Assembly: GCA_946409545.1 (NCBI GenBank)
Contig: CAMJWT010000009.1
Location: 4,194-68,193, forward strand
DNA length: 64,000 bases
Direction: 5' to 3'
Source of the DNA: an uncultured Clostridia bacterium
GTDB lineage: Bacteria > Bacillota_I > Bacilli_A > RF39 > UBA660
The notes beneath the pieces are model-generated. The model did not search any database. It saw only the letters and a list, made by a program, of their open reading frames with translations, and was not told the origin of the DNA. The first letter of the stretch is position 1, and each line of letters begins with the position of its first letter. Made by a program: the position numbers and the translations under genes. Positions 10,372 through 53,478 of this stretch are shown here, piece after piece.

Positions 10372-10421
10372 AGCACTCCTACTATATTTATTTTAACTTT
10401 TTTTAGCAAATTAATAAAGAA

Positions 10422-10449
10422 AAAAGTAGACATTTTTTTGTCTACTTTT
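10422..10449 (-). terminator. terminator hairpin after the 1314-aa gene
   Basis: AAAAGTAGACA-TTTTTT-TGTCTACTTTT. Confidence 0.55.
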
Positions 10450-10460
10450 ACTTATTTTTA

Positions 10461-13400: not shown

Positions 13401-14405
13401 AATTGTATATTCAATTTCAGCACTCTTACCTACATCTAAAGTAATATTACTATTTTTAACACTTATTCCAGTTACACCAACTACTTTATCAGTTACCGTA
13501 ACATCTATTAATTTTTCAATACCATTAACTGTTGTTGCAGCAATCTTAGTACTTCCAACTTGTTTACCAGTTACTACACCTTTACTATTAACTGTTGCAA
13601 TACTTGTATCAATACTTTCCCAAGTTACACTTTGATTAGCTTTTGCTGGCTTAACTTTGGCACTTATTTGTTTACTACCATCAACATTAATAGTTACTTT
13701 TTGTGGACTTACTTCAAGACCGGTTGGATCTACAACATCATCATGTATATCATCTCCAGGGTTATCTTCACTACTAAAGACTTTTACTAGAGCCGAGTCT
13801 TGAATTCCTGTTACTTTATCAGATACTGTAATATAGGCTTGTCCTTCTGCTTTTGCTTCAATCATACCTAAATTATCTATTATTGCAACTTCTGGATCAC
13901 TAGTCATATATTCAAATTCATGAAGAGTTGCTTCATGAGGAGTATATTTAAAACTAATTTGATATTTCTTTCCAATTTGTAAATTAATATTTTTAGGATT
14001 TACGATTATTTTTTCAATTCGAATATTATTTTCAGAAACAACTACTAAACATTCTGCTTTAATTTTTTCGTTTGATTCTAAATAAGCGGTGATTGTAGCA
14101 ATACCATTCTTTTTGGCTTCAACATAACCCGTTACCTCATTTATAGAAACAATATCTGGTTTATCACTTTTATATTTTACTTTACCACTACGTGTATTTT
14201 CTGGATAAACTTTACTTGTTAATTGAAAACTCTTATTCTTTTTCAATCTTATCTCGCTTTGCGATAAACTTATTAATTCAGCTTTTTTATCATAGGGACT
14301 ATCAATAACACCATATGTTACTAATCCAAAATAAACAACAAAGCCTAAGATACCAATTAATAATAATATTGATATCAATCTTAAAAATCCTCTTATTATT
14401 TTCAT
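10461..14405 (-). CDS. large surface protein with about 12 Big_2 repeats and C-terminal phosphodiester-glycosidase-like domain
   Basis: 1314 aa. Its N-terminus is homologous to the 5734 and 14539 paralogs. It carries an internal array of near-identical about 87-aa Big_2 units (KATVAVTGISLDKTSITIKEEGTKTLVATITPSNATNQTVTWESSNT...). The C-terminal domain reads YNLDGGGSRKLYYKTKDMSEPKKVFGGDR. Confidence 0.7.
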   Translation of the reverse strand: MKIIRGFLRLISILLLIGILGFVVYFGLVTYGVIDSPYDKKAELISLSQSEIRLKKNKSFQLTSKVYPENTRSGKVKYKSDKPDIVSINEVTGYVEAKKNGIATITAYLESNEKIKAECLVVVSENNIRIEKIIVNPKNINLQIGKKYQISFKYTPHEATLHEFEYMTSDPEVAIIDNLGMIEAKAEGQAYITVSDKVTGIQDSALVKVFSSEDNPGDDIHDDVVDPTGLEVSPQKVTINVDGSKQISAKVKPAKANQSVTWESIDTSIATVNSKGVVTGKQVGSTKIAATTVNGIEKLIDVTVTDKVVGVTGISVKNSNITLDVGKSAEIEYTIKPSNATNQGVTITSSDNGIVKVDGNKIIAMESGTAKVTIRTNDGGYKATINVIVNNVSSIIDETDINLSKTNVNLTIGGTTKVEASVVPSNATYQSVMWSSSNPNIASVNNGLIEGKSAGTTEVTVTTVHKNISKKIKVTVSNVEAQSISLNKKTLDLIVGSKDALTVTFTPTNTSNKTITWTSSNTGVATVKDGLVVAKGVGTATITAKSSNGKTATCTVNVKADNVPVQSVSLNINAINTTVDDEIHLIATINPSNATNKKVTWESSNTTVATVSDGVVKTKGVGTATITVTTVNGKKDTCKVTVNSSIIDVQSVTLNTNSIKTKVGEEVSLTATVYPSNATNKTVTWTSSDNSIVTVSSSGKIKGIKTGSATITAKSNNGKTATCKVTVESSTTTVSVTGVSLDNTAITLKVGGTKTLVATVSPSNATNKTITWTSSDQSVATISNTGVVTAMKEGTTTITATSNNGKTATCKVTVEKATVAVTGISLDKTSITIKEEGTKTLVATITPSNATNQTVTWESSNTEVATVTSSGKVTGKKAGTATITAKSNNGKTATCKVTVEKATTTVAVTGISLDKTSITIKEEGTKTLVATITPSNATNQTVTWESSNTGVATVSSSGKVTGKKAGTATITAKSNNGKTATCKVTVEKATVAVTSISLDNTSITVKVNASKTLTATVYPDNATDKTVTWSSSDTGVATVSSSGKVTGKKAGTATITAKTSNGKTATCKVTVEKAATTGYVITEDSKYSSYSNKVSYSSSTFKYRIFSYKSQDIILIWVADPKTQLESALAYSNAQGVLPAETILKNEIKNYSLQNKGLVAVNASFFANGTPKGGIVRSHGKFAKNNGSTSAAVVGVNSKGNLKLYVDKPASTFSDDGVHSTFAISSPTSIDHSTNNANRTQICQYDTNNFVLLSGSGTVSGCGNIIISLTGCKEPYNLDGGGSRKLYYKTKDMSEPKKVFGGDRQLPDMLYFHD

Positions 14406-14486
14406 ACACTACTCCTATTTTAATTATATCATCGATTATAATATCTACAATTATTTTAAAAATTTTATTTATATGTTTACATAATA

Positions 14487-14511
14487 AAAAAGTGATAAAA
14501 TATCACTTTTT
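14487..14511 (-). terminator. terminator hairpin after the 735-aa gene
   Basis: AAAGTGATA-AAA-TATCACTTT followed by a T-run. Confidence 0.55.
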
Positions 14512-14538
14512 TTATTTATTAAGGTATTAATAATTTTA

Positions 14539-16746
14539 TCAATTATCTTCAATAATATCATCAGAAGATGTTGAAACTTCTTCTTTAACTGTTACATTAC
14601 AAGTATCTATTTTTCCATTATATGCTTTTACCGTTATAATAGCAGTTCCTTCACTAACACCTTTTACAATACCATTGGCATTAACTTTTGCAATACTAGT
14701 ATCACTACTTTCCCATGTTACATTTTGATTTGTTGCATTAAATGGATTAAAGGTTACATGTAATTCTTTTTTTTCACCAACTTTCAACAATAGCTCGTTG
14801 TTATCTAAAGATATACTATCTAGTTCTACAACTTTATTATTTCCACTTACTATAACTTCACAAGTTGCAGATAGTCCATTAACTGTTGAAGCTTTAATTG
14901 TAGTTTTTCCTACACCTATAGTTTCTACTACACCATCTGATACCGTTGCAACACTCGGATTAGAACTTTCCCATATAACTTTTTTATTTGTAGCATTATC
15001 TGGGTTTATTGTTGCTGTAATATAAATTCGATCATTAACTTCAGTATTAATTACTTGTTTATCTAATGTAATTTCTGAAACAGGAACTCTATTTTCTATA
15101 ACATTAATAGTACACAACGCCGTTTTATTATTATTTGTTTTTACAGTAATATTTGTTGTACCTACACTTAATGCTTTTACTAGACCATTATCAACAGTAG
15201 CAACATTAGGATTAGAACTAGTCCAAGTTACATTTTTATTAGTAGCGTTACTTGGAGTAACTGTTTTAACTAATACGAGTTCATCACCTACAGTAATATT
15301 AGCATTTTTCTTATCTAAACTAATACTTTGAACTTCTTGTTCACGAACTGTTACATTTATTTTTTTTGAAATACTTTTATATACACTTGTAACGATAACA
15401 TCCGTTTTACCGATTCCTTTTCCTACGATTAAACCATCTGATACTGTTGCAATAGATGAATCTTTACTATTCCATAATAAACTTGTATAAGTTGCATTAG
15501 ATGGAATAACATTAGCATTTATTTTATCAGTTCCACCAACAATAATATCTACATTATTTTTAGATAAATTAATATCTTTTTCTTCAATAATTCGAGATAC
15601 TTTATTAACTATTACTTTAGAAGTATCTTTATATCCACCATCAAGGGTTTCAACTGTTACTTTAGCTTCACCACTTTTTATAGCGATTATTCTATTTCCA
15701 TCTATTCTTATTATTTCACCATTATTTGTTGATATTTTAACACCTTGATTGGTAGCGTTTGATGGATTTATTTTATAAGTTAACTTTTTACTATCACCAA
15801 CATTCATTGTTATATTCTTATTCGTAATATTAATACCTTTAACTTTAACTATATCGCTAGTTACTTTAACTGTAATGAAATCTTCTATCCCATTAATCGT
15901 TGTAGCTAATATTTTAGTTGTTCCTTCTTTTATTCCTGTTACTACTCCTAAATCAGATACCATTGCAATATTACTATCCATACTTTCATATGTAATATCA
16001 CTATTAGCTCCTTCTGGAGAAATAATTGTTTCAATTTGATTACTACCACCAATACTTACAGTCATATTTTTAGGTTTTAATTCAAGTTTCGTTGGAACAT
16101 CTTCTTCTAATTTTTCATAAACATTTACTTCTACTTCTTGATATACACCAGATACTTTATCACTAACAACAACCAATGTTGTTCCACTATTAATTGCTTT
16201 GATATTACCATTACTATCAACTGTTGCTACTTTAGGATCTCCTGTCATATATTCTATTTCATGTAAAGCTGCTTCTTTTGGTAATATTTTATAATTAATT
16301 TTGTATTGATTACCAACTTGTAAATATACTCTTTTAGTACTTAAAATTATTTCTTCAATACGAATATCATTATCAGATACAATTACAAGACACTGAGCTT
16401 TAATATCTTTATATTTATCCAAATATGCAGTAATTGTTGCAACACCATTATTTTTAGCTTCTAAATATCCTGTTATTTCATTAACACTAACAATATTAGG
16501 TTTATCACTTTCAAAAATAATTTTTTTATTTTTCATATCACCTGGAAGAATCTTGGCATTTAATTGAAATGATTTAAACTTTTTTAATCTAATTTCACTT
16601 TGTGATAAAGATAAATCTTCTGGTTTCTTTTCAAAAGGATTACTTATTACTCCAAAAGACAATAATGAAAAACCTATGATAAATACTACGATAAATATCA
16701 TAAAATACACTGATATCTTTTTAACTAATACATTATCAAATTTCAT
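14539..16746 (-). CDS. surface-anchored Big_2 repeat protein (no catalytic C-terminal domain)
   Basis: 735 aa. The N-terminal signal-anchor plus first two domains are homologous to the 5734 and 10461 paralogs. About seven Big_2 units follow, and the protein ends in an acidic tail. Confidence 0.65.
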   Translation of the reverse strand: MKFDNVLVKKISVYFMIFIVVFIIGFSLLSFGVISNPFEKKPEDLSLSQSEIRLKKFKSFQLNAKILPGDMKNKKIIFESDKPNIVSVNEITGYLEAKNNGVATITAYLDKYKDIKAQCLVIVSDNDIRIEEIILSTKRVYLQVGNQYKINYKILPKEAALHEIEYMTGDPKVATVDSNGNIKAINSGTTLVVVSDKVSGVYQEVEVNVYEKLEEDVPTKLELKPKNMTVSIGGSNQIETIISPEGANSDITYESMDSNIAMVSDLGVVTGIKEGTTKILATTINGIEDFITVKVTSDIVKVKGINITNKNITMNVGDSKKLTYKINPSNATNQGVKISTNNGEIIRIDGNRIIAIKSGEAKVTVETLDGGYKDTSKVIVNKVSRIIEEKDINLSKNNVDIIVGGTDKINANVIPSNATYTSLLWNSKDSSIATVSDGLIVGKGIGKTDVIVTSVYKSISKKINVTVREQEVQSISLDKKNANITVGDELVLVKTVTPSNATNKNVTWTSSNPNVATVDNGLVKALSVGTTNITVKTNNNKTALCTINVIENRVPVSEITLDKQVINTEVNDRIYITATINPDNATNKKVIWESSNPSVATVSDGVVETIGVGKTTIKASTVNGLSATCEVIVSGNNKVVELDSISLDNNELLLKVGEKKELHVTFNPFNATNQNVTWESSDTSIAKVNANGIVKGVSEGTAIITVKAYNGKIDTCNVTVKEEVSTSSDDIIEDN

Positions 16747-16787
16747 AATTAACTCCTACATTTTTATTATAACATTTATACTTATTA

Positions 16788-16815
16788 AAAAGTGAACAAA
16801 TTATTGTTCACTTTT
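16788..16815 (-). terminator. terminator hairpin after the NlpC/P60 surface protein gene
   Basis: AAAAGTGAACAA-ATTA-TTGTTCACTTTT. Confidence 0.55.
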
Positions 16816-16816
16816 T

Positions 16817-18340
16817 TTACCATTTAATCCACATATTAGTTAGTTTTCCATCACCATTTGCATATATTACATTTCGATAATATGCATCTTGATGTTCAGG
16901 ATCAGTACAGTCACCATTACGACAATTTGTTGAAGGATTAGGAGGATTCTTTTTAGAAATTTTGTTTAAACCATTACTTAATGTATAAATATAATCATCA
17001 TCTATTCCGATAATTAATTCATCATGGCCAAAAGGAATACCTACAATATTTTTCTTATCACGATCATAAGAAAGTAAAACGTCACCTACTCTTATTTTAT
17101 CTAGATTACCTCTTACAGGCGTTGGACTATTAGAATAAGCTCTTCTAATGCCATTAGTATTAAATGGCCAATTCATAAATCCCGTACAATCCATACCATT
17201 TATATATCCATTTTTTCGACAACCCCAAGAGTTAGTTTTAGTTCCAAAATGTAATCCTGCCGTATAAATATTATTTCCACCAGTTCCTTGATAAGCAATA
17301 ACATATGGAATATTACCCATTAAGAATCTACCAGCTTCGACAACCCCTGCTCTAGTTCCTCTTCCTACTTTATTAATAATACTATTCAATTGATTATTTA
17401 GTTTATCATTTTCAGCATCACTTATTTTTCCACAATAACCTGATGAATATAATGGAGTTCCATTATTTGGTTTAAAATGATATGGCAATTTATCTGTTAT
17501 AGAACATTTAACAGTCTTCGTTCTTCCATCATCAAGAGTTAAAGTAACTTTTATATTAGTATATCCTCTTGTAGCATTCTTATAAGCATTTTTACCATCT
17601 ACTTCTTTACCATTTAAATCCCATCTATATTTTTTTACGACATCTAAATTGTCACCAGTTACTTTTGCTGATGTACCATCAGTATCTACTTTTCCACTAC
17701 ATTTGAAATTATAATTAATTGGTTTAACAACAACAGTGCATGTTGCATATTTGTTGTTATTAGCTTTAGCAATGATTGCAACTGTTCCTGCTTTAACACC
17801 TGTTATAACACCATTATCTACTGTAGCAATACTATTATCACCACTTATCCATTCAATACTTTTATCAGTGGCATCACTTGGATTAATCGTAGCTGTTAAA
17901 GTTTCTTTTGCTCCAACTTTAATTGAAAGTGATTCTTTATCTAAGATAACTTCACTTACTTCAATAATAGGTTTTTTTACAATAACTTCACATGTTGCTG
18001 TTTTACCATTATTTGATTTAGCAGTTATTATAGCATTACCTGCCGTTAACCCTGTAACATTTCCATTATCAACTGTAGCAATATTACTATCACTACTTTC
18101 CCAAGTAACAGTTTTATTAGTTGCATTAACCGGTAATATTGTTTCTCTAATAGTTGCACTGTCACCTTCTATTAATACAAGAGATATCGTATCTAGAGCT
18201 ATACTATTTACTTCAACAGTATTATCATCACTACCTGTATTATCACCAGTATTACTTGGAGTATTATCAAGGAATAATAATAGTACACATAAAGCTATTA
18301 AAACTATAAAGATAATTATCGCTATAGAATATTTCTTCAT
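16817..18340 (-). CDS. surface-anchored Big_2 protein with C-terminal NlpC/P60-family (papain-fold) peptidase domain
   Basis: 507 aa with an N-terminal TM and two Big_2 units. The C-terminus has the motifs GMDCTGF ... VGDVLLSY ... GHDELIIG, which is the canonical NlpC/P60 Cys-His arrangement. Confidence 0.62.
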   Translation of the reverse strand: MKKYSIAIIIFIVLIALCVLLLFLDNTPSNTGDNTGSDDNTVEVNSIALDTISLVLIEGDSATIRETILPVNATNKTVTWESSDSNIATVDNGNVTGLTAGNAIITAKSNNGKTATCEVIVKKPIIEVSEVILDKESLSIKVGAKETLTATINPSDATDKSIEWISGDNSIATVDNGVITGVKAGTVAIIAKANNNKYATCTVVVKPINYNFKCSGKVDTDGTSAKVTGDNLDVVKKYRWDLNGKEVDGKNAYKNATRGYTNIKVTLTLDDGRTKTVKCSITDKLPYHFKPNNGTPLYSSGYCGKISDAENDKLNNQLNSIINKVGRGTRAGVVEAGRFLMGNIPYVIAYQGTGGNNIYTAGLHFGTKTNSWGCRKNGYINGMDCTGFMNWPFNTNGIRRAYSNSPTPVRGNLDKIRVGDVLLSYDRDKKNIVGIPFGHDELIIGIDDDYIYTLSNGLNKISKKNPPNPSTNCRNGDCTDPEHQDAYYRNVIYANGDGKLTNMWIKW

Positions 18341-20498: not shown

Positions 20499-21680
20499 TT
20501 ATTTTCTTTTTTTTCTTTTATTTACTAGAAGAATTGTTATAAAAACGGTTAAAGAGATTAAGATACCTACTCCAACACAAATTAAAATTAATCCTTCATT
20601 TGATTGAACTTTATTATCATCAACATTGTCTTTTTTCGGATTATCAGAATCCGGTTCTTTTTCTTTTATTGTATGATCAATAATACTACCATCTTGATCA
20701 GTTTCAACTATAAATGGATCATCATTCCGTTCAATAACCCATCCTTTAAGTGTAGGAATATAGTAGATATTCTCAGGAATAACTCCACAATATTTAACTT
20801 CATAATCTTTATTTGCTTCAATCGTTCCAATAGATTCAGATGATATATCACTATCATTAAACTCAACGGTTCTATATATTTTAGCAACTTTCTTAGCTTT
20901 AATTTTATAATTATCACAATTATGAGCAAATGAATCAAATTTACTACTTATTGGCAAAAATCCTGATATGCCATTATATTTTACATAATAATAATTAGAT
21001 GATTCTCCACCTTTATCAGTAGATAACCAATAATTAGTAATCTCCGTATTCGAAGGAATATAACCTAGTATATTACTATCTTTAAAATTACCATCAGATG
21101 TTTTATAGATAGGTGCATTATTAATTGTAACAATCGTAATATCTTCATTATCTACTGGAGCCATTTCAAGAACAACTCTATCTTTATAACGACTAATATA
21201 ACCTTTAATGCCCTTATATGATACATATAACCAATAATGATTATACTCATATTCTGGTTTTAATTTAACACCTTTAGGAATAGTACCAACTTTATTAAAA
21301 ATTGTTGCTGGCCCAGAATATACTGTAATATTATCAAGCATTAAAGCTTGACCATAAACTTTATTTTTTTCTTCTTCATCAATTTTAAAGTCTTTAGTTT
21401 TAACTATTACATCTCTTGCATTAACATGACATGCGTCATATTCATCGTTAATTGTAACTAAATAAAATGTTTCCTCTTGAATATCTTGTCTAGCGTAATA
21501 TGTTTCACCATATGGTAACAATTCTTTATGGTTATAATCATTATCTAAACACATTGCACCTTCAACATTTGATATCTCAATTTGAATTTCAGGAAAAGTA
21601 GGAGGGCCAGTATCAGCTTTAACATTTAATACTAATAATAAACTTAAAAACAATAATATATTAAATATTTTTTTCATCAA
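20499..21680 (-). CDS. type I membrane protein with SH3b-like domains (paralog 1 of 3)
   Basis: 393 aa with a signal peptide MKKIFNILLFLSLLLVLNVKA and SH3b-like segments (VYSGPATIFNKVGTIPKGVKLKPEYEYNHYWLYVSYKGIKGYIS). A C-terminal TM is followed by a KRKKRK stop-transfer sequence. Confidence 0.5.
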   Translation of the reverse strand: MMKKIFNILLFLSLLLVLNVKADTGPPTFPEIQIEISNVEGAMCLDNDYNHKELLPYGETYYARQDIQEETFYLVTINDEYDACHVNARDVIVKTKDFKIDEEEKNKVYGQALMLDNITVYSGPATIFNKVGTIPKGVKLKPEYEYNHYWLYVSYKGIKGYISRYKDRVVLEMAPVDNEDITIVTINNAPIYKTSDGNFKDSNILGYIPSNTEITNYWLSTDKGGESSNYYYVKYNGISGFLPISSKFDSFAHNCDNYKIKAKKVAKIYRTVEFNDSDISSESIGTIEANKDYEVKYCGVIPENIYYIPTLKGWVIERNDDPFIVETDQDGSIIDHTIKEKEPDSDNPKKDNVDDNKVQSNEGLILICVGVGILISLTVFITILLVNKRKKRK

Positions 21681-21692
21681 CTGACCTCCTTT

Positions 21693-23159
21693 CTATTCTA
21701 AATTGGAATTATCATTATTATTTTGAATAGGTTCTACTTCTTCTTTTTTCTTTTTATTAACTAACTTAATAACAACAAGTATTGTTACTGCTATTAAGAT
21801 ACCTGCACCAACACAAATCATAATTAATTCTTCATTTGTTAATCCTTTTTTATCATCTGGTGTTGGTTCTTCCTTTGGAGTTGGTGGTTGTACATCACCA
21901 GGTTTTTCTGCTTTTACAATTTTAAAAGTATAAGTATGTGTTCCATCTTCATCCTTAGCTTTTAATGTAACAACACTATTATTTTTTAAATCTTCATTAT
22001 TTAATACATCTACTTCAACTTCATTTGGAGTAACAACAAATTCTAGTTTTGTTTCTTCTTCACTTAACTCAACAGTATAAGAATACTGTGTTTTTGAAAA
22101 ATCAATACTATGTCCTTTTATTTCTATTTTTTCTAAAGAAATTTCTTCTTTAGTATGATCAAATACTTCTCCTTTAGAATCTGTTTCGATGATATATCTA
22201 TCCTCATGATCTTCAGTGATCCAACCATTTTTTGATGTAATATAATACGCATTCCATCCTTGACCACCACCACAATATTTGACATCATAATCTTTATTTG
22301 AGTCTATTGTTCCAAGCTCCTTGGAAATAAGTTTACCATTATCATCGTAATCAAGTGATTCATATACTTTAACAGATTTTTTAGCTTTTATTTTTGTACC
22401 ATCACACTTTTCTGCAAAAGAATAATGATTATACACAAAACCATATTTACCATTATATTCAATGTAATTATTTCGACTATAATCTGTACCCCATTCAACT
22501 TTTAATTCTTTATTAGCTGGTATTGTATCAATTATTTTGGAATCTTTAGTAGTACTATAATCGAATTCATGATCAAAAATAGGTGTTTTATCATATGTTA
22601 CAACTATTTCTGGTTCTATATGAACAACAATGGCACCACCTTCACTACTTATATATCCTTTTATGCCATTATATTCAACATAATACCAATAATCACCTAA
22701 TTTGTAACTAGATTCTAATTTAGAATCTTTAGGAATAGTTCCTATTTCTTTATAGAAATTTTTAGATGGACCAGAATAAATTTTCATATCTTTAAGAGCC
22801 CATAATGCAAAAGGTCCCTCTTCTTTATCATCTTCTGCTGGTTTAAAGTTATCTTGTTTTACAACTACATCTGTCTTTTTAACATAACAAGATAAAACCT
22901 CTTTTTCATTAAAAGATAATTTATAATAATCTTTTATAAAGTTATCATCATATATATCAGTATTTTCAATATAACCGTAAGCAAGTTCACCATATTTAAG
23001 AGTTCTATTAACTTTAGATTCACTATCATAACATTTAGCTCCATCAGGATTAGAAACTTCCATTTCTAATTGAGGCAATACTGGTGGTCCCATATCAGCT
23101 TTAACATTTAAAACTAATAATAAACTTAAAAACAATAATATATTAAATATTTTTTTCAT
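21693..23159 (-). CDS. type I membrane protein with SH3b-like domains and cadherin-like beta-sandwich domain (paralog 2)
   Basis: 488 aa with the same signal peptide and SH3b-like motifs (DYWYYVEYNGIKGYISS). The cadherin-like pattern LEKIEIKGHSIDFSKTQYSYTVEL...THTYTFKIV is followed by a Pro-rich linker, a TM and KKKK. Confidence 0.5.
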   Translation of the reverse strand: MKKIFNILLFLSLLLVLNVKADMGPPVLPQLEMEVSNPDGAKCYDSESKVNRTLKYGELAYGYIENTDIYDDNFIKDYYKLSFNEKEVLSCYVKKTDVVVKQDNFKPAEDDKEEGPFALWALKDMKIYSGPSKNFYKEIGTIPKDSKLESSYKLGDYWYYVEYNGIKGYISSEGGAIVVHIEPEIVVTYDKTPIFDHEFDYSTTKDSKIIDTIPANKELKVEWGTDYSRNNYIEYNGKYGFVYNHYSFAEKCDGTKIKAKKSVKVYESLDYDDNGKLISKELGTIDSNKDYDVKYCGGGQGWNAYYITSKNGWITEDHEDRYIIETDSKGEVFDHTKEEISLEKIEIKGHSIDFSKTQYSYTVELSEEETKLEFVVTPNEVEVDVLNNEDLKNNSVVTLKAKDEDGTHTYTFKIVKAEKPGDVQPPTPKEEPTPDDKKGLTNEELIMICVGAGILIAVTILVVIKLVNKKKKEEVEPIQNNNDNSNLE

Positions 23160-23170
23160 CTACTGACCTC

Positions 23171-24631
23171 CTATTCTAAATTGGAATTATCATTATTATT
23201 TTGAATAGGTTCTACTTCACTATTTTTCTTTTTATTAACTAACTTAATAATAACAAGTATTGTTACTGCTATTAAGATACCTGCTCCAACACAAATCATA
23301 ATTAATTCTTCATTTGTTAATCCTTTTTTATCATCTGGTGTTGGTTCTGGTTTTGGAGTTGGTGGTTGTACATCACCTGGTTTTTCTGCTTTTACAATTT
23401 TAAAAGTATAAGTATGTGTACCATCTTCATCCTTAACTTTTAAGGTAACAACACTATTATTTTTTAAATCTTCATTATTTAATACTTTTACGTCAACCTC
23501 ATCTGGAGTAACAACAAACTCTAGTTTTGTTTCTTCTTCAGCTAACTCAACAGTGTATTCTGTTTTGTTCTTGGCAAATCCGATATCATGTCCTTTTATT
23601 TCAAGTTTTTCCAAAACAACTGATCCCTCATATGGATCTTCACCTTTAGAGTTAGTATATTTTACGAAGTCAACATGAGGAAGATAATTTGATTCAGATA
23701 CCCTATTATAAATCCATCCTTTTAATTCTGTTATATAATAGCCTTCTTCATCATAAAAATCATAACAATAAGATACAGCATATTCTTTTCCTTTGGATAC
23801 TGTTCCAATCTTTGCTCTTTTACTACCTAGATTATCATATACATCTAAATCACGTTTAGCTACAATTTTACCACCAGAACAACCTTCTGCAAATCCATCC
23901 ATTTTTCCAATTAATCCTGATGTTCCATTATAATCAATATAATAATATCTATCATAATCCGTAGACCAATTAACTTCTATCAAAGTATTTGCTGGTATTT
24001 CACCAATGACATTTATTTTTTCGTTGTTTTCATCATTTTGACGTTCAGAGCCAATTTTTTGAATATTTATGGCATACACTGTAAAATATTTTTGTCCTTG
24101 AATTTCGTTGTTGACAATAGCAGTTTTTTCACTTGATATATATCCACTTACACCATCATATGTTACATAATACCAAAAATCTCCCATACGATATTGCGTT
24201 TTAAGTTTTGTTCCTTTTGGTATTACCTTATTTAATTTTTCAAAATAAGTTGATGGTCCTTTGTACATCTCAACACCTTTTGATTCAATTACCATCAAAT
24301 CAATTTCTTTTTCTAATTTATCTTCATTAGATAATTCATATTTTTGATTAAAAAAGTTTAAATCTTCAAGATGAATATAACAATATGCCTCTTCATTAGT
24401 TAAATCATAGTGATATGAATATTCACCTGCACCATAATTTTCTACTTCAATGACTGTTCCTTTAGCAAGTACTCTTTCTACTTCTTTAAAGTCCATATCT
24501 TTATAACATTTTGTGTTATCATTCTTAACTTCACCTTTTAATTTAGGGAAAGCAGGTGGTCCCATATCTGCTTTAACATTTAAAACTAATAATAAACTTA
24601 ATAATAATAAACTATTTAATATCTTTCTCAT
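23171..24631 (-). CDS. type I membrane protein with SH3b-like domains and cadherin-like beta-sandwich domain (paralog 3)
   Basis: 486 aa. The C-terminal about 150 aa are about 95% identical to paralog 2 at nucleotide level. SH3b-like motif: DFWYYVTYDGVSGYISS. Confidence 0.5.
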   Translation of the reverse strand: MRKILNSLLLLSLLLVLNVKADMGPPAFPKLKGEVKNDNTKCYKDMDFKEVERVLAKGTVIEVENYGAGEYSYHYDLTNEEAYCYIHLEDLNFFNQKYELSNEDKLEKEIDLMVIESKGVEMYKGPSTYFEKLNKVIPKGTKLKTQYRMGDFWYYVTYDGVSGYISSEKTAIVNNEIQGQKYFTVYAINIQKIGSERQNDENNEKINVIGEIPANTLIEVNWSTDYDRYYYIDYNGTSGLIGKMDGFAEGCSGGKIVAKRDLDVYDNLGSKRAKIGTVSKGKEYAVSYCYDFYDEEGYYITELKGWIYNRVSESNYLPHVDFVKYTNSKGEDPYEGSVVLEKLEIKGHDIGFAKNKTEYTVELAEEETKLEFVVTPDEVDVKVLNNEDLKNNSVVTLKVKDEDGTHTYTFKIVKAEKPGDVQPPTPKPEPTPDDKKGLTNEELIMICVGAGILIAVTILVIIKLVNKKKNSEVEPIQNNNDNSNLE

Positions 24632-46161: not shown

Positions 46162-49100
46162 TTAATTACATTGTAAATGAACTTTTGTATAAACATAACA
46201 GTCAAGACCGTCATCACTACCACAATTTGATGTTGATGTTGTTGAGCCTTTGTAGTAACAAATTGGATGACCTTCAGAACTAATATATGATGCTGATAAA
46301 TTATTACATAATCTATTATCATAGTCACCATCATATCCATATATTTTTTCTCTACTACCTTCACTACAAGAATAAGCTATAGTATCAATAGAACTTTTAG
46401 CCATTATCTTCATCTTTGTACTCATTTTATTACTATTATCAAATGAAACATTTCCACTTTTACGAGTCCAATTTGAGAAATAGTATCGATAGATAGATGA
46501 AGTAGTCTTAACATTTGCACTAATATCATGTTTATAATTACTACTACTTGAACCAGGTCCAAGTAAGATAACACTACTACTAACTTGTTTTCCATTAATC
46601 GTTAATGAGCTAATAGCATCTCGTACATTAACAGATAACGTATAATAATGAACATCACGTGATACTTCGCCATTTGTTGTTGTAACCATTATATTCGTAT
46701 TTTTAAGAGCTGTTTTATTATTATTATCAACACCAGCATATATATAATATGTACCACTTTCAACGTTTTCAAAATCAACTCTTGAAGATGATGCTGTTGC
46801 ACTATATTTTAAAGATCCATTTTTATATAATGCTATTTTTTGTCCACTTGAAGCGTATAAAACACCATCTTTATAAAGTCTTATAGAAATAACATTTTTA
46901 ACAACTTTTTCTTTTATTTCGATTTTTCCACTTCCACATTCTTTATCATTATGAAGGGAATCTCCTTTGATTCTTACATAAACATTTGTTGTACCAACTT
47001 CTGTTCTCGTTGGTTTTGTTGTTGACCATGTACCTGTTGATGAAGTACGGTATTCCAAAGTTCCTCCACTACTTGATGATAATGAAATAGTATGACTATT
47101 ACCATCATAAGTTTCACTATATGAAGTTATAGTTGGACAAACAGGATCTGTTTTTGGTTTCTTAATATAAACATATCTTGTTATTTTTGGACCTGCTGTT
47201 GTGTTGTAATATGGTTCAAAAACAAACATATGAATACCTTCTGTACTGAAATTACTTAATACTGTAATCTCACTAGAATTCATTGCTAATTCAGTTGATG
47301 GTGTACAAGTTGATGCTGTTGTACGACAATATTTTATTTTATTAACATTACCTGTTTTGGAAACTCTAATTGTTGTTGCAGAAACAGAACTTGAATTTAT
47401 TGTAGGTTTGGTTGTTGTTAATCCATTTCCTGTTACACTAATTGTTCCAACTGGCGAAGTAGTATTTGGTACTTCTAAATCAATAAATGTACTTTCACCG
47501 TTATAGTATGCAGTTATTCTTGCCTTACCAGCTCCAACGGCTTTAACTAATCCATTAGATACTGTTGCAACCGTTGTTTTAGAACTTGTCCATGTAACTC
47601 CTGATGTTTTCTTAGCACCATTTACATATAGGAATAGTTGTTCTTCTGTACCTTTAATCATTGATACTCCGGTTCCAACAACAATATTATTTTGATTTCT
47701 AAATTCAAGTCTTGATGGCCCACCAGTATCTGATGCTACGATATCAACATATGTACTCTTTCCATTATAAGTTGCAGTTATTCTTACAGTACCTGTAGAA
47801 ACAATTGTTATTAATCCATTTGATACAGTAGCGACACTTGTTTTGGAACTTGTCCATGTAACTCCTGATGTTTTCTTAGTTCCATTAACATATAAATATA
47901 TTTGTTTTGTATTACCTTTTAATAAATTAATACTAGTAGCAAGAGCTGTATTTGATGTATCTTTTAATACTAAGCTAGTAGGACATGAAGATGAAGTTGT
48001 ATAACTAGACATCAAGACATAATTACTTATACCTAGGAAACTTCCCCATTCATAGTTTGCAGTAGATCCAATTCTAAAGCATCCTTTATTTCCTCTATTA
48101 ATATAGGCCTTACAAGCAGTTTCACCAACAACACTTGTTACATCATTAGTATGGGTTGAATCTTTTTGACCCCATACACAATTACCACTACCATTACAAT
48201 AACATCTATCTGGTGTTGCCCCACCACAGTCACTTTGTTTTTCGATTGTTGATACATATGCATAATTTGTTGGATTATGTAAATAACTTCCCCAAGTATA
48301 ACTTCCATTATGTAAGAAGCATCCAACATTTCCTCGATCTATATATTTTTTACAAACAGTATAACTATTATCCGTAAGTATTGTATATCCATTACCACTT
48401 AATCCCCAACGACATGCTCCACTACTATTACAATAGCAGGCATTAGTATATGCTTCATCAGGAATATAGATATACCAATTATCAGGTCCTCTTACTAAAG
48501 CATTTGCCGCATTATATTCAGACACTCTTACGGTTATCATTCCTCTTGTTGTAATATTATAAACGCCATTATCTAATACTTTAGTTGATGGTGTACAATT
48601 ATCACCTAAACAAACTTTTAAATAACTTACTCCACCATTTACGATATCAAAGGAAACAGTTTGATCTCCTGTCTTAGCATAACTATTAGCAGTACCTGGA
48701 TTATTATATAAATTATTGGAAGTTACTTTATAACCAATTGTTGGTGTAGAACCTCCACCACTACCTTTAATTGTTACATATCTTGTTTCTTCCGTTCCTT
48801 CTTGTCCTTGATAATAAGGAATGGCTTTAATTACATAAACTGTTTTAGCTGTAACTGTTGATGGTGGTAAAGTAAATTCATCAGTATAAATACTATAACT
48901 ACAAGTTGAAGATGTTGCTTTATTATAGAAGCAGAATCTTATTTCATCAACATTACCACTTCCTTTTAAAGTAATCTTCGTACTATCAACTTCATTACCA
49001 TTAACATCTGTTGAAACAGCATTATTTGTTCCTGTAATAACAACACTACCAACTTTCTTGGTTGGTGATCCACCTCCTCCTGGATCCGTTGGATCATCTG

Positions 49101-50343
49101 GTGGATTATATGGTTCATTAACCGTTACATATATTAAACGTTTAATATCTAAATTTGAACTTGGAGATACAGTAATAATTGTACTACCACTTCCAAAGGC
49201 AGATATTGTTCCACTACTATCTACACTTAATACTGTTGGATTATCTACTAAATAAGTAATTACTTGATTTGTAGCATTACTTGGTTCAACAGTAGCAACT
49301 ATTTGCTTTTGTTCTCCAACTTCCATTGTAATATTTGTTTCACTCTCTAAATTTATACCTGTTACTGGTACTTCTCCAGCTAAAACATGAACAACCATTG
49401 TATCACGTAAATCTAAAGAAGAAATGGATATTTCAACATTACCTGCTTTTCTTGCAACTAATTCACCATTTAAGACCGTTGCAATTTCCTCATCAGAACT
49501 AGTCCACAAGATATAATCCGTACTTGCAGTTGCTGGTTCTTGACGATAAGTAAGCATCTTTGTTTCACCTTCAGTTAAAGTTATTTCTTTTTCATCAAAA
49601 GATAAACTAGTTGGTAAAACATATATTCCAGGAACAATTTGTCCATTAATAACACGTGCTTTGATATTTGTTTGAGCTTCGCCATCATTAACCGTAACTC
49701 TTATTGTTGTTTCTCCAATTGCGTTTGCAGTTAATACTCCTGTTTCCATATCAACACTTGCTACATTAGGTTCAGTCGATGAAAAGATTTTACTCTTTAC
49801 CAAAGCTTCACTTGGTGATACTTGTATAGGAACCTCATAAGTTGTACCAACAGGCATTAAGATAATGCCTTCATCCGATATTGTAACTTTTTCTACTTTT
49901 ATTGATGTATCACCTTCAGTAACGGTAACTTCACATTCATGCTTCCGTTTATTATATGTACCTGTTACTGTTGTTTTTCCAACCTTAACGCCTTTAACCA
50001 TACCATTTTTATCAACGGTGGCAATTGATGGATCTTTACTTTCCCATTGAACATTAGTTACATTTTTTCCATCTTTAAGTAAATTTAATTGGCCACTTGT
50101 TTCTGTTGTAATTGTTAAAGTTTTTGATGAAATAGTTACCCCATCATCACTACTACTTGAAAACAAAGACATCAAAATTAATAATACAATTACTAGAACG
50201 GCTATAATAACTAACTTTTTATTTTCTTTCAAAAAGTTTGTTATTTTATCCATAGTAGATACATCACCATCAGCATAATCTGTATCTTCTAATTCTTGCT
50301 CTTCTTCATCATCAATCTCGAATTCATCATCCATACACGACAC
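46162..50343 (-). CDS. giant type II membrane / surface protein with Big_2 domains, duplicated modules and a novel Cys-rich repeat pair
   Basis: 1393 aa. An acidic cytoplasmic N-terminus (DDEFEIDDEEEQELED) is followed by a TM. Big_2 units (VTWTSSKTSVATVSNG) include a recent internal duplicate. Two about 65-aa repeats have the pattern CYCN.SG.C.WG...C.KYI.RGN.GCF...WGS(Y/F)L. Confidence 0.65.
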   Translation of the reverse strand: MSCMDDEFEIDDEEEQELEDTDYADGDVSTMDKITNFLKENKKLVIIAVLVIVLLILMSLFSSSSDDGVTISSKTLTITTETSGQLNLLKDGKNVTNVQWESKDPSIATVDKNGMVKGVKVGKTTVTGTYNKRKHECEVTVTEGDTSIKVEKVTISDEGIILMPVGTTYEVPIQVSPSEALVKSKIFSSTEPNVASVDMETGVLTANAIGETTIRVTVNDGEAQTNIKARVINGQIVPGIYVLPTSLSFDEKEITLTEGETKMLTYRQEPATASTDYILWTSSDEEIATVLNGELVARKAGNVEISISSLDLRDTMVVHVLAGEVPVTGINLESETNITMEVGEQKQIVATVEPSNATNQVITYLVDNPTVLSVDSSGTISAFGSGSTIITVSPSSNLDIKRLIYVTVNEPYNPPDDPTDPGGGGSPTKKVGSVVITGTNNAVSTDVNGNEVDSTKITLKGSGNVDEIRFCFYNKATSSTCSYSIYTDEFTLPPSTVTAKTVYVIKAIPYYQGQEGTEETRYVTIKGSGGGSTPTIGYKVTSNNLYNNPGTANSYAKTGDQTVSFDIVNGGVSYLKVCLGDNCTPSTKVLDNGVYNITTRGMITVRVSEYNAANALVRGPDNWYIYIPDEAYTNACYCNSSGACRWGLSGNGYTILTDNSYTVCKKYIDRGNVGCFLHNGSYTWGSYLHNPTNYAYVSTIEKQSDCGGATPDRCYCNGSGNCVWGQKDSTHTNDVTSVVGETACKAYINRGNKGCFRIGSTANYEWGSFLGISNYVLMSSYTTSSSCPTSLVLKDTSNTALATSINLLKGNTKQIYLYVNGTKKTSGVTWTSSKTSVATVSNGLITIVSTGTVRITATYNGKSTYVDIVASDTGGPSRLEFRNQNNIVVGTGVSMIKGTEEQLFLYVNGAKKTSGVTWTSSKTTVATVSNGLVKAVGAGKARITAYYNGESTFIDLEVPNTTSPVGTISVTGNGLTTTKPTINSSSVSATTIRVSKTGNVNKIKYCRTTASTCTPSTELAMNSSEITVLSNFSTEGIHMFVFEPYYNTTAGPKITRYVYIKKPKTDPVCPTITSYSETYDGNSHTISLSSSSGGTLEYRTSSTGTWSTTKPTRTEVGTTNVYVRIKGDSLHNDKECGSGKIEIKEKVVKNVISIRLYKDGVLYASSGQKIALYKNGSLKYSATASSSRVDFENVESGTYYIYAGVDNNNKTALKNTNIMVTTTNGEVSRDVHYYTLSVNVRDAISSLTINGKQVSSSVILLGPGSSSSNYKHDISANVKTTSSIYRYYFSNWTRKSGNVSFDNSNKMSTKMKIMAKSSIDTIAYSCSEGSREKIYGYDGDYDNRLCNNLSASYISSEGHPICYYKGSTTSTSNCGSDDGLDCYVYTKVHLQCN

Positions 50344-50402
50344 CTCTATTATAATTTTAACATAATTAAATATTTTAACAATAAAAAAATAAAGAAATAT
50401 TT

Positions 50403-50996
50403 TTATTTCTTTATTTTGTTTTTTAAATTAATTAATTCATAAAAAGCAAGACGATTTCCCGCACCATTTATATAATGATTTTCAATCAATTCTTCAATTT
50501 CTTCTATCGTAAACAAATCAAAATTAATATATTCACTATCATCTAAGTTTTGATCTGATACTTTAATTGCATTATCAGCAATAACAATATTAATTGTCGA
50601 ACCATCAATACCTAATGAAGAATAATAACTATCTAAAAGAATAATATCATCTGATTTAAAACCCGTTTCTTCTTGAAGTTCTCTATTAGCAGCCGTTATA
50701 CTATCTTCACCTTCTTCAATATAACCTGATGGGAATTCAACTGATACAATACCATTTATTCTATTTTGAACAACTAGCAAATATTTTTCATCACTTGTTC
50801 TTGCAACAATGATTACCGCTTGTTTACCATTATTTTTCCTTATTCTTTCTCTTTTGATTATTTTTCCGTTAGGAAGTTTATAATCTTCTTCTAAAAGTGT
50901 TATAAAGTTTCCTTTATATAATTCTTTTATATTTATTTTTTCAGCTTTCGTATCATGGATTAAACCTTTAATTCTATTATCTAAATCTTTATTCAT
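50403..50996 (-). CDS. NUDIX hydrolase
   Basis: The Nudix box GYIEEGEDSITAANRELQEETGF is present. Confidence 0.8.
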   Translation of the reverse strand: MNKDLDNRIKGLIHDTKAEKINIKELYKGNFITLLEEDYKLPNGKIIKRERIRKNNGKQAVIIVARTSDEKYLLVVQNRINGIVSVEFPSGYIEEGEDSITAANRELQEETGFKSDDIILLDSYYSSLGIDGSTINIVIADNAIKVSDQNLDDSEYINFDLFTIEEIEELIENHYINGAGNRLAFYELINLKNKIKK

Positions 50997-51003
50997 ATTT
51001 CAC

Positions 51004-51927
51004 CTATAACTTTAGTTTTTTCGTTTTTACAAAACTATCATAATATTCATAATTATTAGTTACTGTTGTAACATCAATATCTCGATTAAAATATTTATCA
51101 AATGAACACATAAAATCTTTAGCAGTAGCAGGAATCTTTGTCCATCCACCATTATATATTAGATATGTTCCTGTAGGTAATTTAACAATCCCTCTAGCTT
51201 CCGCTGGAAAAACATTTCTTCTTGGAGTTAACAATCCTTTATTTTTAGGAAAAATACCTTCTAAGATATTAGGTACTACTCCATTATGATAATGACCTGT
51301 AATTACTAAATTATAATCTTTTAATAATTCTTGATTCATACTACTTTGAATTGGTTCTGGAGAATGATTTAGGAAGATTTTATATTTATCACTAGGTAAA
51401 TCTTTAACTAAAGACTCTTTACTTGATAAATCATTATAGAAAGCAAGATCATCTTCCATATTAGATCCATCTTTAAAATATGCACTTCCTTTTTGAAGAT
51501 AACCACCAACAAAGATATTATCATCAGTATAACTTTGATCTATAAGTATATGCGTATTAGCATCTTTATATTTATCCCAAATCGTTGATATCGTCATTAA
51601 ATCATTTGGTTTATCATAATAATAATCATGATTTCCAAGAATAATAAAAGTTTTACCAATATTATTACAATTCTTAATTAAGACATCAAGTTCAAGTAAT
51701 CTTTTGTCATAAGATAATTCCATTGGTGTATCAACAGTATCTCCCAAGATCATAATATAATCAGGATTAATACTATCAATTAATTTTAATAATTTATCAA
51801 CACTAAACAAGTCAACATTTTTAGATAAATGAATATCACCAACACTTAATATCTTAATATCTTTATTAACACAATCACTATAAAAGGTTGATTCTCTAAC
51901 TTTAACAAAATCACTTGGATAGTTCAT
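51004..51927 (-). CDS. calcineurin-like metallophosphoesterase
   Basis: The motifs VGDIHL, ILGDTVD, GNHD and GHYH are present. Confidence 0.75.
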   Translation of the reverse strand: MNYPSDFVKVRESTFYSDCVNKDIKILSVGDIHLSKNVDLFSVDKLLKLIDSINPDYIMILGDTVDTPMELSYDKRLLELDVLIKNCNNIGKTFIILGNHDYYYDKPNDLMTISTIWDKYKDANTHILIDQSYTDDNIFVGGYLQKGSAYFKDGSNMEDDLAFYNDLSSKESLVKDLPSDKYKIFLNHSPEPIQSSMNQELLKDYNLVITGHYHNGVVPNILEGIFPKNKGLLTPRRNVFPAEARGIVKLPTGTYLIYNGGWTKIPATAKDFMCSFDKYFNRDIDVTTVTNNYEYYDSFVKTKKLKL

Positions 51928-52009
51928 AAACTCCTCCAGTGAATTATTCTATTATATATAAGGCATTATGTCAAAAAATAATAAAAAAACTAAATATTAA
52001 ATTTAGTTT

Positions 52010-52936
52010 TTAAATAACAATAATCAAAATAGAAATAACTAAAATTGTTACAAGAGCAATAGGAACGCGTCCTTTATATTTTTTATACATTGCAACAATT
52101 TCTTTTCTCTTTTTTAAATTATTAACATTTTTACCAATTAGAACTTCTCCTGCTCCCTTATATGACTCAATATCTTCTTTATAAATAGAATTATAACTAG
52201 AATCATGTCCAGCATAAACAGTTTCCGGAATTAACGGATCATACAAACCTAATATTTTAGAACTTTTAAACATAAACCCAATTCCATACCCAAGTAAAAA
52301 TACGATTATTGGATAACCAACATAAGTTTCTTTTAATACTTTCAAAATATCAGGTACAAATAACAAAGCTGAAACAAGAATAATAGCTGGAATTAAGCCA
52401 AAGCCTAGATATACTTTTCTTATTACCATTGACCTTTTTTCAATAACTTTATCATATCTTGGTCGTGCATTAAGAACCTTATTCTTTATTAATTCATAAA
52501 CATCCTTAATATGATTGTCATCTTTCTTTATTGATACATCTACTTCCATTTTATATTCTCTAACATAAATAGATATACTTTGATAAATAACATCATAACT
52601 CCAACTACCATCTGTTTTTGCAGAATACGAATAACTAAAGTAAACAGAAAAGTCTTTGATGTCTTCTAATCGATTATGAAAAACTGTAATGAAATCAATA
52701 TAATTATCTAATTTAACACTTGAAGAATCATAAAAAGAAACATCAAAATTCAATTTGCTTCCTTCATCTTTTAAATCCCATCTTTGATATTGTCTTTCTA
52801 ATATTTCATTATTTTTTTCAACATTTTTTGTTACTTTTTCTATTTCGATAATCTTTTCATTCATTAAAGCAATTATATCTTCAATATCAGAAGCTTGAAT
52901 AATTTTATTAGAAATAGATAAAGAATCTTTATACAT
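52010..52936 (-). CDS. hypothetical membrane protein (cytoplasmic N-domain + 3 TM)
   Basis: 308 aa. A soluble N-terminal region of about 170 aa is followed by TMs at about residues 180-200, 210-232 and 290-308. Confidence 0.4.
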   Translation of the reverse strand: MYKDSLSISNKIIQASDIEDIIALMNEKIIEIEKVTKNVEKNNEILERQYQRWDLKDEGSKLNFDVSFYDSSSVKLDNYIDFITVFHNRLEDIKDFSVYFSYSYSAKTDGSWSYDVIYQSISIYVREYKMEVDVSIKKDDNHIKDVYELIKNKVLNARPRYDKVIEKRSMVIRKVYLGFGLIPAIILVSALLFVPDILKVLKETYVGYPIIVFLLGYGIGFMFKSSKILGLYDPLIPETVYAGHDSSYNSIYKEDIESYKGAGEVLIGKNVNNLKKRKEIVAMYKKYKGRVPIALVTILVISILIIVI

Positions 52937-52950
52937 AATCTACCTCCTTT

Positions 52951-53478
52951 TTATTTTGAACAGAAAATGGTATTACAAGTATCAAAAGAATTTAATAGTT
53001 CAATAATTCTTTTTTCAATTGCATCCATTTCACTATCTTCATAATTAGATTTTCTAGTAAACTTAATATTATATGGTTGAAAATCAACAACAAATTGATT
53101 TTCAAACTTTGTTAAATTTAAATAACCTTTACCACGAGAAAAATCTAAATTCATAACAATTTTCATATCTGATATATTATTTATTTTTCCTTCTCTATAT
53201 AAATTACTAAAAGACTCAAAATTTTTACAAGTTGTATAATCATGTGATAAAGAATTATCAATAGGTTTTCTTATAGTAATTTCAAAATTGGAATAATAAT
53301 TTTTATATTGATGTTCTTGAAATTCAGGTTTTAACTTTTCATTTCTTGCCTTTTCTTCTTCTGATATACTCATTAACCTATTAAAAACACCATCAAAGAA
53401 TTGAACAATAATGCCAATTTTATCAATAACAGGAACAATATTTGAATAATCATAAACATTATCAATTGCTTTTTCCAT
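52951..53478 (-). CDS. hypothetical cytoplasmic protein
   Basis: 175 aa with no recognisable motif. It lies 14 nt upstream of the 52010 gene, so the pair is probably a bicistronic unit. Confidence 0.35.
   Translation of the reverse strand: MEKAIDNVYDYSNIVPVIDKIGIIVQFFDGVFNRLMSISEEEKARNEKLKPEFQEHQYKNYYSNFEITIRKPIDNSLSHDYTTCKNFESFSNLYREGKINNISDMKIVMNLDFSRGKGYLNLTKFENQFVVDFQPYNIKFTRKSNYEDSEMDAIEKRIIELLNSFDTCNTIFCSK

Follow-up and report, generated by a model that had tools for sequence, protein, structure and literature searches.

We analyzed a 64,000-nucleotide (nt) stretch of DNA from an uncultured Clostridia bacterium (contig CAMJWT010000009.1, positions 4,194 to 68,193), hereafter the window, in which a gene on the reverse strand encodes a large surface protein carrying two adjacent copies of a cysteine-rich module. 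The listed open reading frame (ORF), 46162..50343 (-), is 1393 amino acids (aa) long, and residues are numbered by it below. Since the GTG start chosen by the ORF finder falls within a Shine-Dalgarno-like AGAGGTG (50334-50343), and the syntenic ortholog P0001 begins with MDDEF, the true start is most likely the ATG at 50334, 6 nt downstream at residue 4, which gives a protein of 1390 aa. The module pair runs from Cys636 to Cys787 (nt 47983-48438, -), with module 1 spanning Cys636-Cys706 and module 2 following directly at Cys714-Cys787. Comparing the two modules revealed 40% identity over 80 residues (BLASTP E=2e-15), and the repeat is therefore not a product of chance.

The pair had been pointed out in an earlier note on this DNA, and its motifs are present as described, with CYCNSSGACRWG at residue 636 and CYCNGSGNCVWG at residue 714, as well as KKYIDRGNVGCF / KAYINRGNKGCF and YTWGSYL / YEWGSFL. 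The dimensions given there had to be corrected: instead of 4-5 cysteines in about 65 aa, each copy contains six (636, 638, 644, 664, 675 and 706 in module 1; 714, 716, 722, 744, 755 and 787 in module 2) and measures ~71-74 aa from first to last Cys, or ~80 aa with its flanks. The interval 48030-48450 (aa 632-772) assigned to the repeat does locate the pair, but its lower bound stops ~15 residues short of the end and so leaves out the sixth Cys of copy 2. The features of the protein are collected in Table 1.

Table 1. Features of the surface protein gene and of its two cysteine-rich modules (positions in the window).
Feature	Position	Strand	Basis
Surface protein gene, ~1390 aa	46162..50334	(-)	From ATG at residue 4 of the listed ORF; stop codon included
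Acidic, predicted cytoplasmic N-tail, aa 4-38, ending in the positive patch KENKK	50230..50334	(-)	15 D/E and 0 K/R in the first 27 residues
Single hydrophobic helix, aa 44-62, predicted signal-anchor	50158..50214	(-)	Sole Kyte-Doolittle peak >1.6 in the protein
Membrane-proximal Big_2 Ig-like stalk, aa 64-420, four Big_2	49084..50154	(-)	Pfam Big_2 matches; PHROG Ig-domain matches over aa 68-474
Two beta-rich domains with one Cys pair each (C471/C481, C578/C583)	48454..49071	(-)	No Pfam match
Module 1 unit A, Cys636-Cys664, CYCNSSGACRWG...C, 4 Cys	48352..48438	(-)	DSSP hairpin 7-10 + 16-19, helix 33-41 (model residues)
Module 1 linker KKYIDRGNVG, end of unit-A helix and turn	48322..48351	(-)	Column statistics
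Module 1 unit B, Cys675-Cys706, CFLHNGSYTWGSYL...C, 2 Cys	48226..48321	(-)	hhalign to simple units
Module 2 unit A, Cys714-Cys744, CYCNGSGNCVWG...C	48112..48204	(-)	
Module 2 linker KAYINRGNKG	48082..48111	(-)	
Module 2 unit B, Cys755-Cys787, CFRIGSTANYEWGSFL...C	47983..48081	(-)	
Two Big_2 domains right after the pair, aa 788-960	47464..47982	(-)	Pfam Big_2 E=2.4e-14, 2 stretches
Distal fast-evolving or replaced region, aa 961-1393, with C-terminal 6-Cys stretch	46165..47463	(-)	Ortholog comparison

To collect relatives, a HMMER profile of the two copies was run against 1.84 billion cluster representatives, which returned 13 proteins or clusters, all from metagenome bins of uncultured Bacilli (7 at E<=1e-10 and 2 at E<=1e-30). 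Where a source name was given, it read 'MAG: Ig-like domain-containing protein [Bacilli bacterium]' (MBP5684638.1 and MBP5684639.1, encoded by neighbouring genes), and the sample labels (XIEF21, WILK20) suggest, as far as labels can, ruminant gut metagenomes. P0001, the ortholog in locus L001, shares 76% identity with the window protein overall and ~80-92% in the conserved N-terminal two-thirds. Scanning JGI/NCBI metagenomes yielded 18 further loci, one of which (L011) is 99% identical to the window gene. The same architecture, an acidic tail, an ENKKL-type patch, a helix, Big_2 domains and one or more modules, is displayed by the window protein, P0001-P0004, P0006, P0007, P0009-P0011, P0013 and the metagenome paralogs. 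In L012-L015 and L018, two or three paralogous genes lie in tandem, and each of them encodes the acidic tail, a Big_2 stalk and 1-3 modules.

The family is rare. Scanning 185,579 GTDB species representatives for A[YT][TP][ND][AR]CYCN, [NV][SG][YE]T[VA]CK[KA]Y and CYC[NK][TSA][SN]GxC[RDT] detected no relative, and word-indexed homolog searches with the 167-aa pair or a 22-sequence alignment came back empty, a result that reflects a limitation of the index and not absence, as the larger library holds the family. The lineage itself is common, the neighbouring ProRS having thousands of matches at ~75% identity. The module is a genuine, previously unnamed domain family of a narrow group of uncultured Bacilli.

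Each module proved to be not one unit, as it had been read before, but a tandem of two units of ~34 aa. Unit A (CYCNxSGxCxWG...YT...C) is followed by a linker (K-x-Y-I-x-R-G-N-x-G) and by unit B (CFxxxGxYxWGSY...Y-x-Y-V-S...C). Judged by profile alignment, unit B is unambiguously homologous to a simple ~34-aa repeat (ACYxDxxGxYxWGxY...Y-x-L-V...C) of P0005, P0008 and P0012 (hhalign probability 98.5%, E=1.8e-15), and the module profile aligns with the tandem simple repeats of P0008 in registers staggered by ~37 aa. Unit A matches the simple units weakly and in the same register (hhalign E=8e-4); in the joint alignment its extra cysteines, Cys10 and Cys16 in the numbering of the module model, fall on the [IKLV] and [YF] columns of the simple units. 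P0003 and several metagenome paralogs possess a compound module beside a simple-type pair, and arrangements of this type are intermediates between the compound and simple forms. Some of the tandem paralogs carry a variant first unit, C[YL]V.xSSQG[IV]GTN[FY].W. The family would provide an example of repeat-unit evolution, in which a unit doubled and fused, and a disulfide came to stand in for a hydrophobic cross-strand pair.

Column statistics were calculated over 38 distinct module instances collected by local hidden Markov model (HMM) scans. Cys8, Cys36 and Cys47 are invariant (38/38), and Cys78 is present in all 36 instances that reach its column. Cys10 and Cys16 occur together in 29 of the 38 and are jointly absent from the other 9, with no instance carrying one alone. 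Conservation extends beyond the cysteines to W56 (38/38), G57 (37/38), Y66 (36/38), Y9 (35/38) and N11 (26/38), while the linker has Y39 in 29/38 instances and R42, G43 and N44 as its commonest residues (16, 19 and 17 of 38, respectively). Both window copies display the signature of the compound 'CYCN' module, C-x-C-x(5,6)-C...C...C...C with a Trp in the second hairpin and a linker of the Y-x(2,3)-[RN]-G-N type, and their scores are 144 and 151 bits with the pair profile and 83-85 bits when the 22-sequence profile is used.

AlphaFold2 folded module 1 confidently from the 22-sequence alignment, with a predicted local distance difference test (pLDDT) score of 91.2 and a predicted template modelling score (pTM) of 0.74. 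The model contains a hairpin (7-10/16-19), a short strand, a helix (33-41), a second hairpin (46-50/53-57), a further short strand and a short helix, that is, a bb(b)a pattern occurring twice. When both modules were modelled together, pLDDT was 88 and pTM 0.52; the low pTM despite confident folding of each suggests that they are independent beads with no defined mutual orientation. Each mini-domain would thus be built from a beta-hairpin bearing the invariant Trp, a short third strand and a short helix, and would be clamped by a disulfide between the first and last Cys of the unit (C636-C664, C675-C706, C714-C744 and C755-C787). Unit A would have acquired a further disulfide (C638-C644 and C716-C722) that spans the neck of the hairpin and takes the place of the hydrophobic/aromatic cross-strand pair found in the simple units, and the conserved helix-turn K-x-Y-I-x-R-G-N would join units A and B. 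In the model, residues 10 and 16 appear as cross-strand neighbours at the neck of the first hairpin, in the geometry expected of a hairpin disulfide, and the pairings listed are the most likely ones on the predicted fold. Disulfide stabilisation, as first proposed for these modules, is the best reading of the Cys pattern, with four Cys invariant and the fifth and sixth gained or lost together in 38/38 instances.

The same cysteines could in principle form a Zn-Cys4 knuckle, in which those of unit A (CxC-x5-C-x19-29-C) hold a structural metal that would be stabler in a reducing gut. Cys8, Cys10 and Cys16 should indeed share one face of the hairpin, with Cys36 in the following helix, and the sample names point to an anaerobic, reducing habitat. 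However, unit B and all simple units retain two terminal Cys, too few for Zn, and yet are predicted to fold alike, and Cys10 and Cys16 give way jointly to a hydrophobic/aromatic pair, as expected for a cross-strand disulfide and not for two of four ligands. The module also contains no CxxC knuckles and has no Zn-ribbon match in Pfam, and we consider metal binding highly improbable.

The strongly acidic N-tail ahead of a signal-anchor, another feature singled out in the earlier note, was confirmed (Table 1). KENKK precedes the single helix and SSSSDDG comes after it; because a positive patch lies before the helix and an acidic or Ser-rich stretch behind it, the protein is predicted to adopt an N-in, C-out topology with the modules outside. 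The acidic tail, a (F/Y)xxENKKL patch and a single helix recur in all N-terminally anchored homologs examined, and the tail was seen at the N-termini of P0001-P0013 where these are N-terminally anchored and in ORFs of L012-L018. Searches with the tail gave only sub-threshold matches, to a CD1108 family mobile element protein and to Sec models lacking the signal recognition particle. The window protein has no C-terminal LPxTG-like sortase signal, ending in ...YTKVHLQCN with no hydrophobic helix there.

Pfam Big_2 (PF02368) matched the whole protein at E=2e-46 in six stretches. Big_2 domains are found to either side of the pair, as had been stated, and agree with its predicted location outside the cell; those downstream adjoin it (aa 788-960), while the directly upstream aa 425-630 are beta-rich and match no Pfam family. 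To place the modules in the evolution of the protein, dN/dS, the ratio of nonsynonymous to synonymous substitution rates, was estimated by the Nei-Gojobori method against the L001 ortholog. The ratio was 0.16 for the N-terminal Big_2 stalk, 0.13 and 0.18 for the first and second unassigned beta domains, 0.23 and 0.19 for modules 1 and 2, and 0.23 for the Big_2 pair after them, and reached 0.54 and 0.66 in the next two domains. As the values of the modules (0.19-0.23) match those of the Ig-like stalk (0.13-0.23), the pair can be counted as part of the conserved stalk. Over the last ~250 aa, homology to the ortholog is lost (25% identity); unrelated Cys-rich domains stand there in P0001, which ends in an Ephrin_rec_like Cys-rich domain. 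Comparison of window 46165-47463 with L001 ~8880-9870 points to domain shuffling at the presumed ligand-facing end, for which the distal C-terminal region is presumably the more likely candidate.

In a region rich in S, T, N and G, one might suspect a similarity due to chance or composition, or an artefact of assembly or reading frame. Such an origin is at odds with the internal repeat, with the 13 related clusters and the 38 instances sharing invariant Cys and Trp, with a dN/dS of ~0.2 against a syntenic ortholog, with the 99%-identical independent contig and with a pLDDT of 91, and we regard it as excluded.

No named family accounted for the module, in agreement with the earlier note. The pair and each copy matched 0 families of Pfam-A (2025 copy) at E<=10, and nothing consistent emerged over 22 instances; NCBIfam (release 20) gave no match on the module, PHROGs matched only the Big_2 part, the PDB sequences held no single-sequence match to the module, and Foldseek of the module model against PDB and BFVD found nothing significant. 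In the homologs, Pfam recognised Big_2 and Ephrin_rec_like only, in parts of the proteins other than the module. Our literature search found no relevant description of a Cys-rich repeat in such proteins. Ubiquitin-like and MbtH-like Foldseek matches were rejected as non-significant. The MbtH-like fold, a three-stranded sheet plus helix with a conserved Trp, has the same outline topology and recurs among the weak matches (template modelling score 0.32-0.38, target-normalised), but these have E>=3.8 and probability <=0.12, and MbtH proteins are cytoplasmic partners of non-ribosomal peptide synthetases that lack disulfides.

With its six Big_2 domains, single anchor and extracellular beads on a string, the window protein resembles the Big_2 surface proteins of the intimin/invasin type and the Big_2 adhesins of Gram-positive bacteria. 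It differs from them in its anchor, an N-terminal helix behind an acidic tail, and in the Cys-rich pair, which is neither Big_2 nor another Ig-like Pfam domain and is predicted to form hairpin-plus-helix units with no beta-sandwich. The Rib, SHIRT, G5-E and DUF1542 stalk repeats of sortase-anchored proteins are likewise small, independently folded and tandem, and lie between the anchor and the functional end; they show no sequence match to the module and are Cys-free, whereas the module is probably clamped by its conserved Cys pairs. Small Cys-rich extracellular repeats of the Ephrin_rec_like and TNFR types (PF07699, PF23091) do occur in the same protein family, at the C-terminus of P0001 and the N-terminus of P0005, but in other regions of those proteins, and the module matches neither. 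The known kind to which the module belongs is that of the small repeat modules in Ig-rich bacterial surface proteins.

A lectin or adhesin tip had been suggested as the role of the pair, and a more general form of this idea is that the modules are lectin-like or resemble carbohydrate-binding modules (CBMs), their aromatics (Y, W, Y, Y) together with N and R-G-N binding plant cell wall, peptidoglycan or host glycan as in CBM1 or hevein. CBM1, hevein/CBM18 and CBM10 are disulfide-stabilised domains of 30-45 aa that present several conserved aromatics on a small beta scaffold. The module is similar in size, presumed disulfides and aromatics, but has another Cys pattern and no Foldseek match in PDB, and no CBM, lectin or chitin-binding Pfam family was found in the 22 instances even at E<=10. 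The aromatic and polar positions conserved beyond Cys (W56, G57, Y66, Y9, N11 and R42/G43/N44) would suit a binding surface, although so small a domain needs conserved aromatics for its core anyway. The only PDB sequence match of the family profile is a mannose-binding bulb-type lectin from garlic (1kj1_D), which shares with the module the hairpin motif D-x-x-G-x-x-x-W-x-S followed by Y-V-L-V. We rejected this match, as it is non-significant (E=0.58) and inconsistent in topology: the bulb-type lectin (beta-prism II) consists of three ~36-aa all-beta subdomains with QxDxNxVxY motifs, whereas the model has two units with helices and no such motif. All N-terminally anchored members have kept the module, placed where the variable region joins on, and the sample names suggest rumen or ruminant gut, where glycan adhesion is plausible. 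A tip, however, is not where the pair lies, since it occupies aa 636-787 of 1393 in a protein anchored at its N-terminus and evolves like the stalk. Ligand binding as the main role of the modules, the chief alternative to a stalk role, is possible but, in our view, doubtful.

The reading we prefer, at a probability of about 0.5, is that of an unnamed disulfide-clamped mini-domain repeat that acts as a rigid extracellular stalk element. The modules would be independently folded rigid beads holding the variable distal C-terminus away from the cell; secondary ligand contact by them is possible, and no test here indicates it.

Several observations weigh against a disulfide-clamped stalk element. 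The homology of units A and B is weak by sequence alone, with hhalign giving E=0.012 for A against B and the simple-unit HMM giving unit A only 2-3 bits. The co-occurrence of Cys10 and Cys16 carries a nominal Fisher p=6e-9, calculated from counts that are inflated by shared ancestry, and the predicted pairings rest on DSSP strand boundaries and this co-occurrence, not on S-S geometry. A pure spacer would need no conserved polar N11, no R-G-N and not so many aromatics, all of which a binding surface could use, and nearly every member has 1-3 copies where the conserved region meets the variable one, which could fit a specific function. The chemistry is a further concern. The habitat suggested by the sample names, ruminant gut, is a strongly reducing one, and in aerobic Firmicutes Cys tends to be kept out of exported proteins (PMC2823432), so that disulfides stable outside the cell cannot be taken for granted. 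Within the 64-kb window, no gene was recognised as encoding a thiol-disulfide oxidoreductase. Should the disulfides be real, one would have to ask how exported proteins become oxidised in an anaerobic Firmicute.

As a bolder proposal, the ~34-aa unit may represent a new extracellular fold that lacks a solved relative, and the CYCN module may serve rumen Bacilli specifically for adhesion or as a lectin; its three disulfides would imply an unrecognised extracytoplasmic oxidative folding in strictly anaerobic, reduced-genome Bacillota. Such folding, if true, would run contrary to the Cys-exclusion pattern of Firmicutes; we consider this proposal unlikely. A new mechanism or a function of wider importance is not indicated so far. 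The family itself, with its 34-aa unit, 80-aa compound form and confident predicted fold, could enter domain databases, where it would fill a gap in the annotation of large surface proteins from abundant uncultured ruminant-gut Bacilli.

The simple units of P0005, P0008 and P0012 stand in tandem at the C-terminus, directly before VPKTA, PPTAA or VPATG, a hydrophobic helix and KK. By their sequence, these C-termini look like sortase-like sorting signals with a non-canonical first residue; a wall-proximal position before a sortase signal is the usual place of stalk repeats, in line with a stalk role of the family. The P0007 gene has an in-frame TAA just after its first module (L006 2162-2266), beyond which the frame runs on into a second CYCN module. 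The TAA, seen in one metagenome contig, could stem from a nonsense mutation or a sequencing error, or could mark a pseudogene, and the possibility that P0007 ends with a module at its tip was rejected because the second module follows the TAA in frame.

Among the 27 predicted extracellular Cys of the window protein, 26 are found in obvious local pairs. The sole unpaired one is Cys137 (49933-49935, -) in the first Big_2 domain, within the motif ..Y..K..CEVTV.EG, and it is invariant in 7/7 aligned family members; it could be a free thiol or provide an intermolecular link.

The surface protein gene is neighboured by genes for ProRS (prolyl-tRNA synthetase), NUDIX, cyclophilin, IspH and the S10 operon. 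The family had no match in a viral contig scan or in tblastn searches against plasmids and phages, and because these scans were empty and the chromosomal context is syntenic with L001, an origin from a phage or mobile element was rejected. The gene neighbourhoods of the paralogs share no common partner and therefore give no operon-based clue to function. Between ProRS and DUF192, the window has a block of five genes (46162-53478: two hypotheticals, Metallophos, NUDIX and the surface protein) that is absent from a relative in L008 with 78% ProRS identity, in which ProRS directly abuts DUF192 at 11425-11440.

Elsewhere in the window, a run of Big_2-rich exported proteins (8713-18340, -) indicates a heavy genome investment in Ig-like surface proteins. 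It includes an exported protein with 12 Big_2 domains (10461-14405, -), an exported Big_2 protein with a NAGPA phosphodiester glycosidase domain (8713-10371, -) and an exported Big_2 protein with a sub-threshold NlpC/P60 match (16817-18340, -). Three tandem paralogous secreted proteins with near-identical signal peptides (MKKIFNILLFLSLLLVLNVKAD) are encoded at 20499-24631 (-), and the paralog that was scanned (20499-21680, -) contains an SH3_3 domain.

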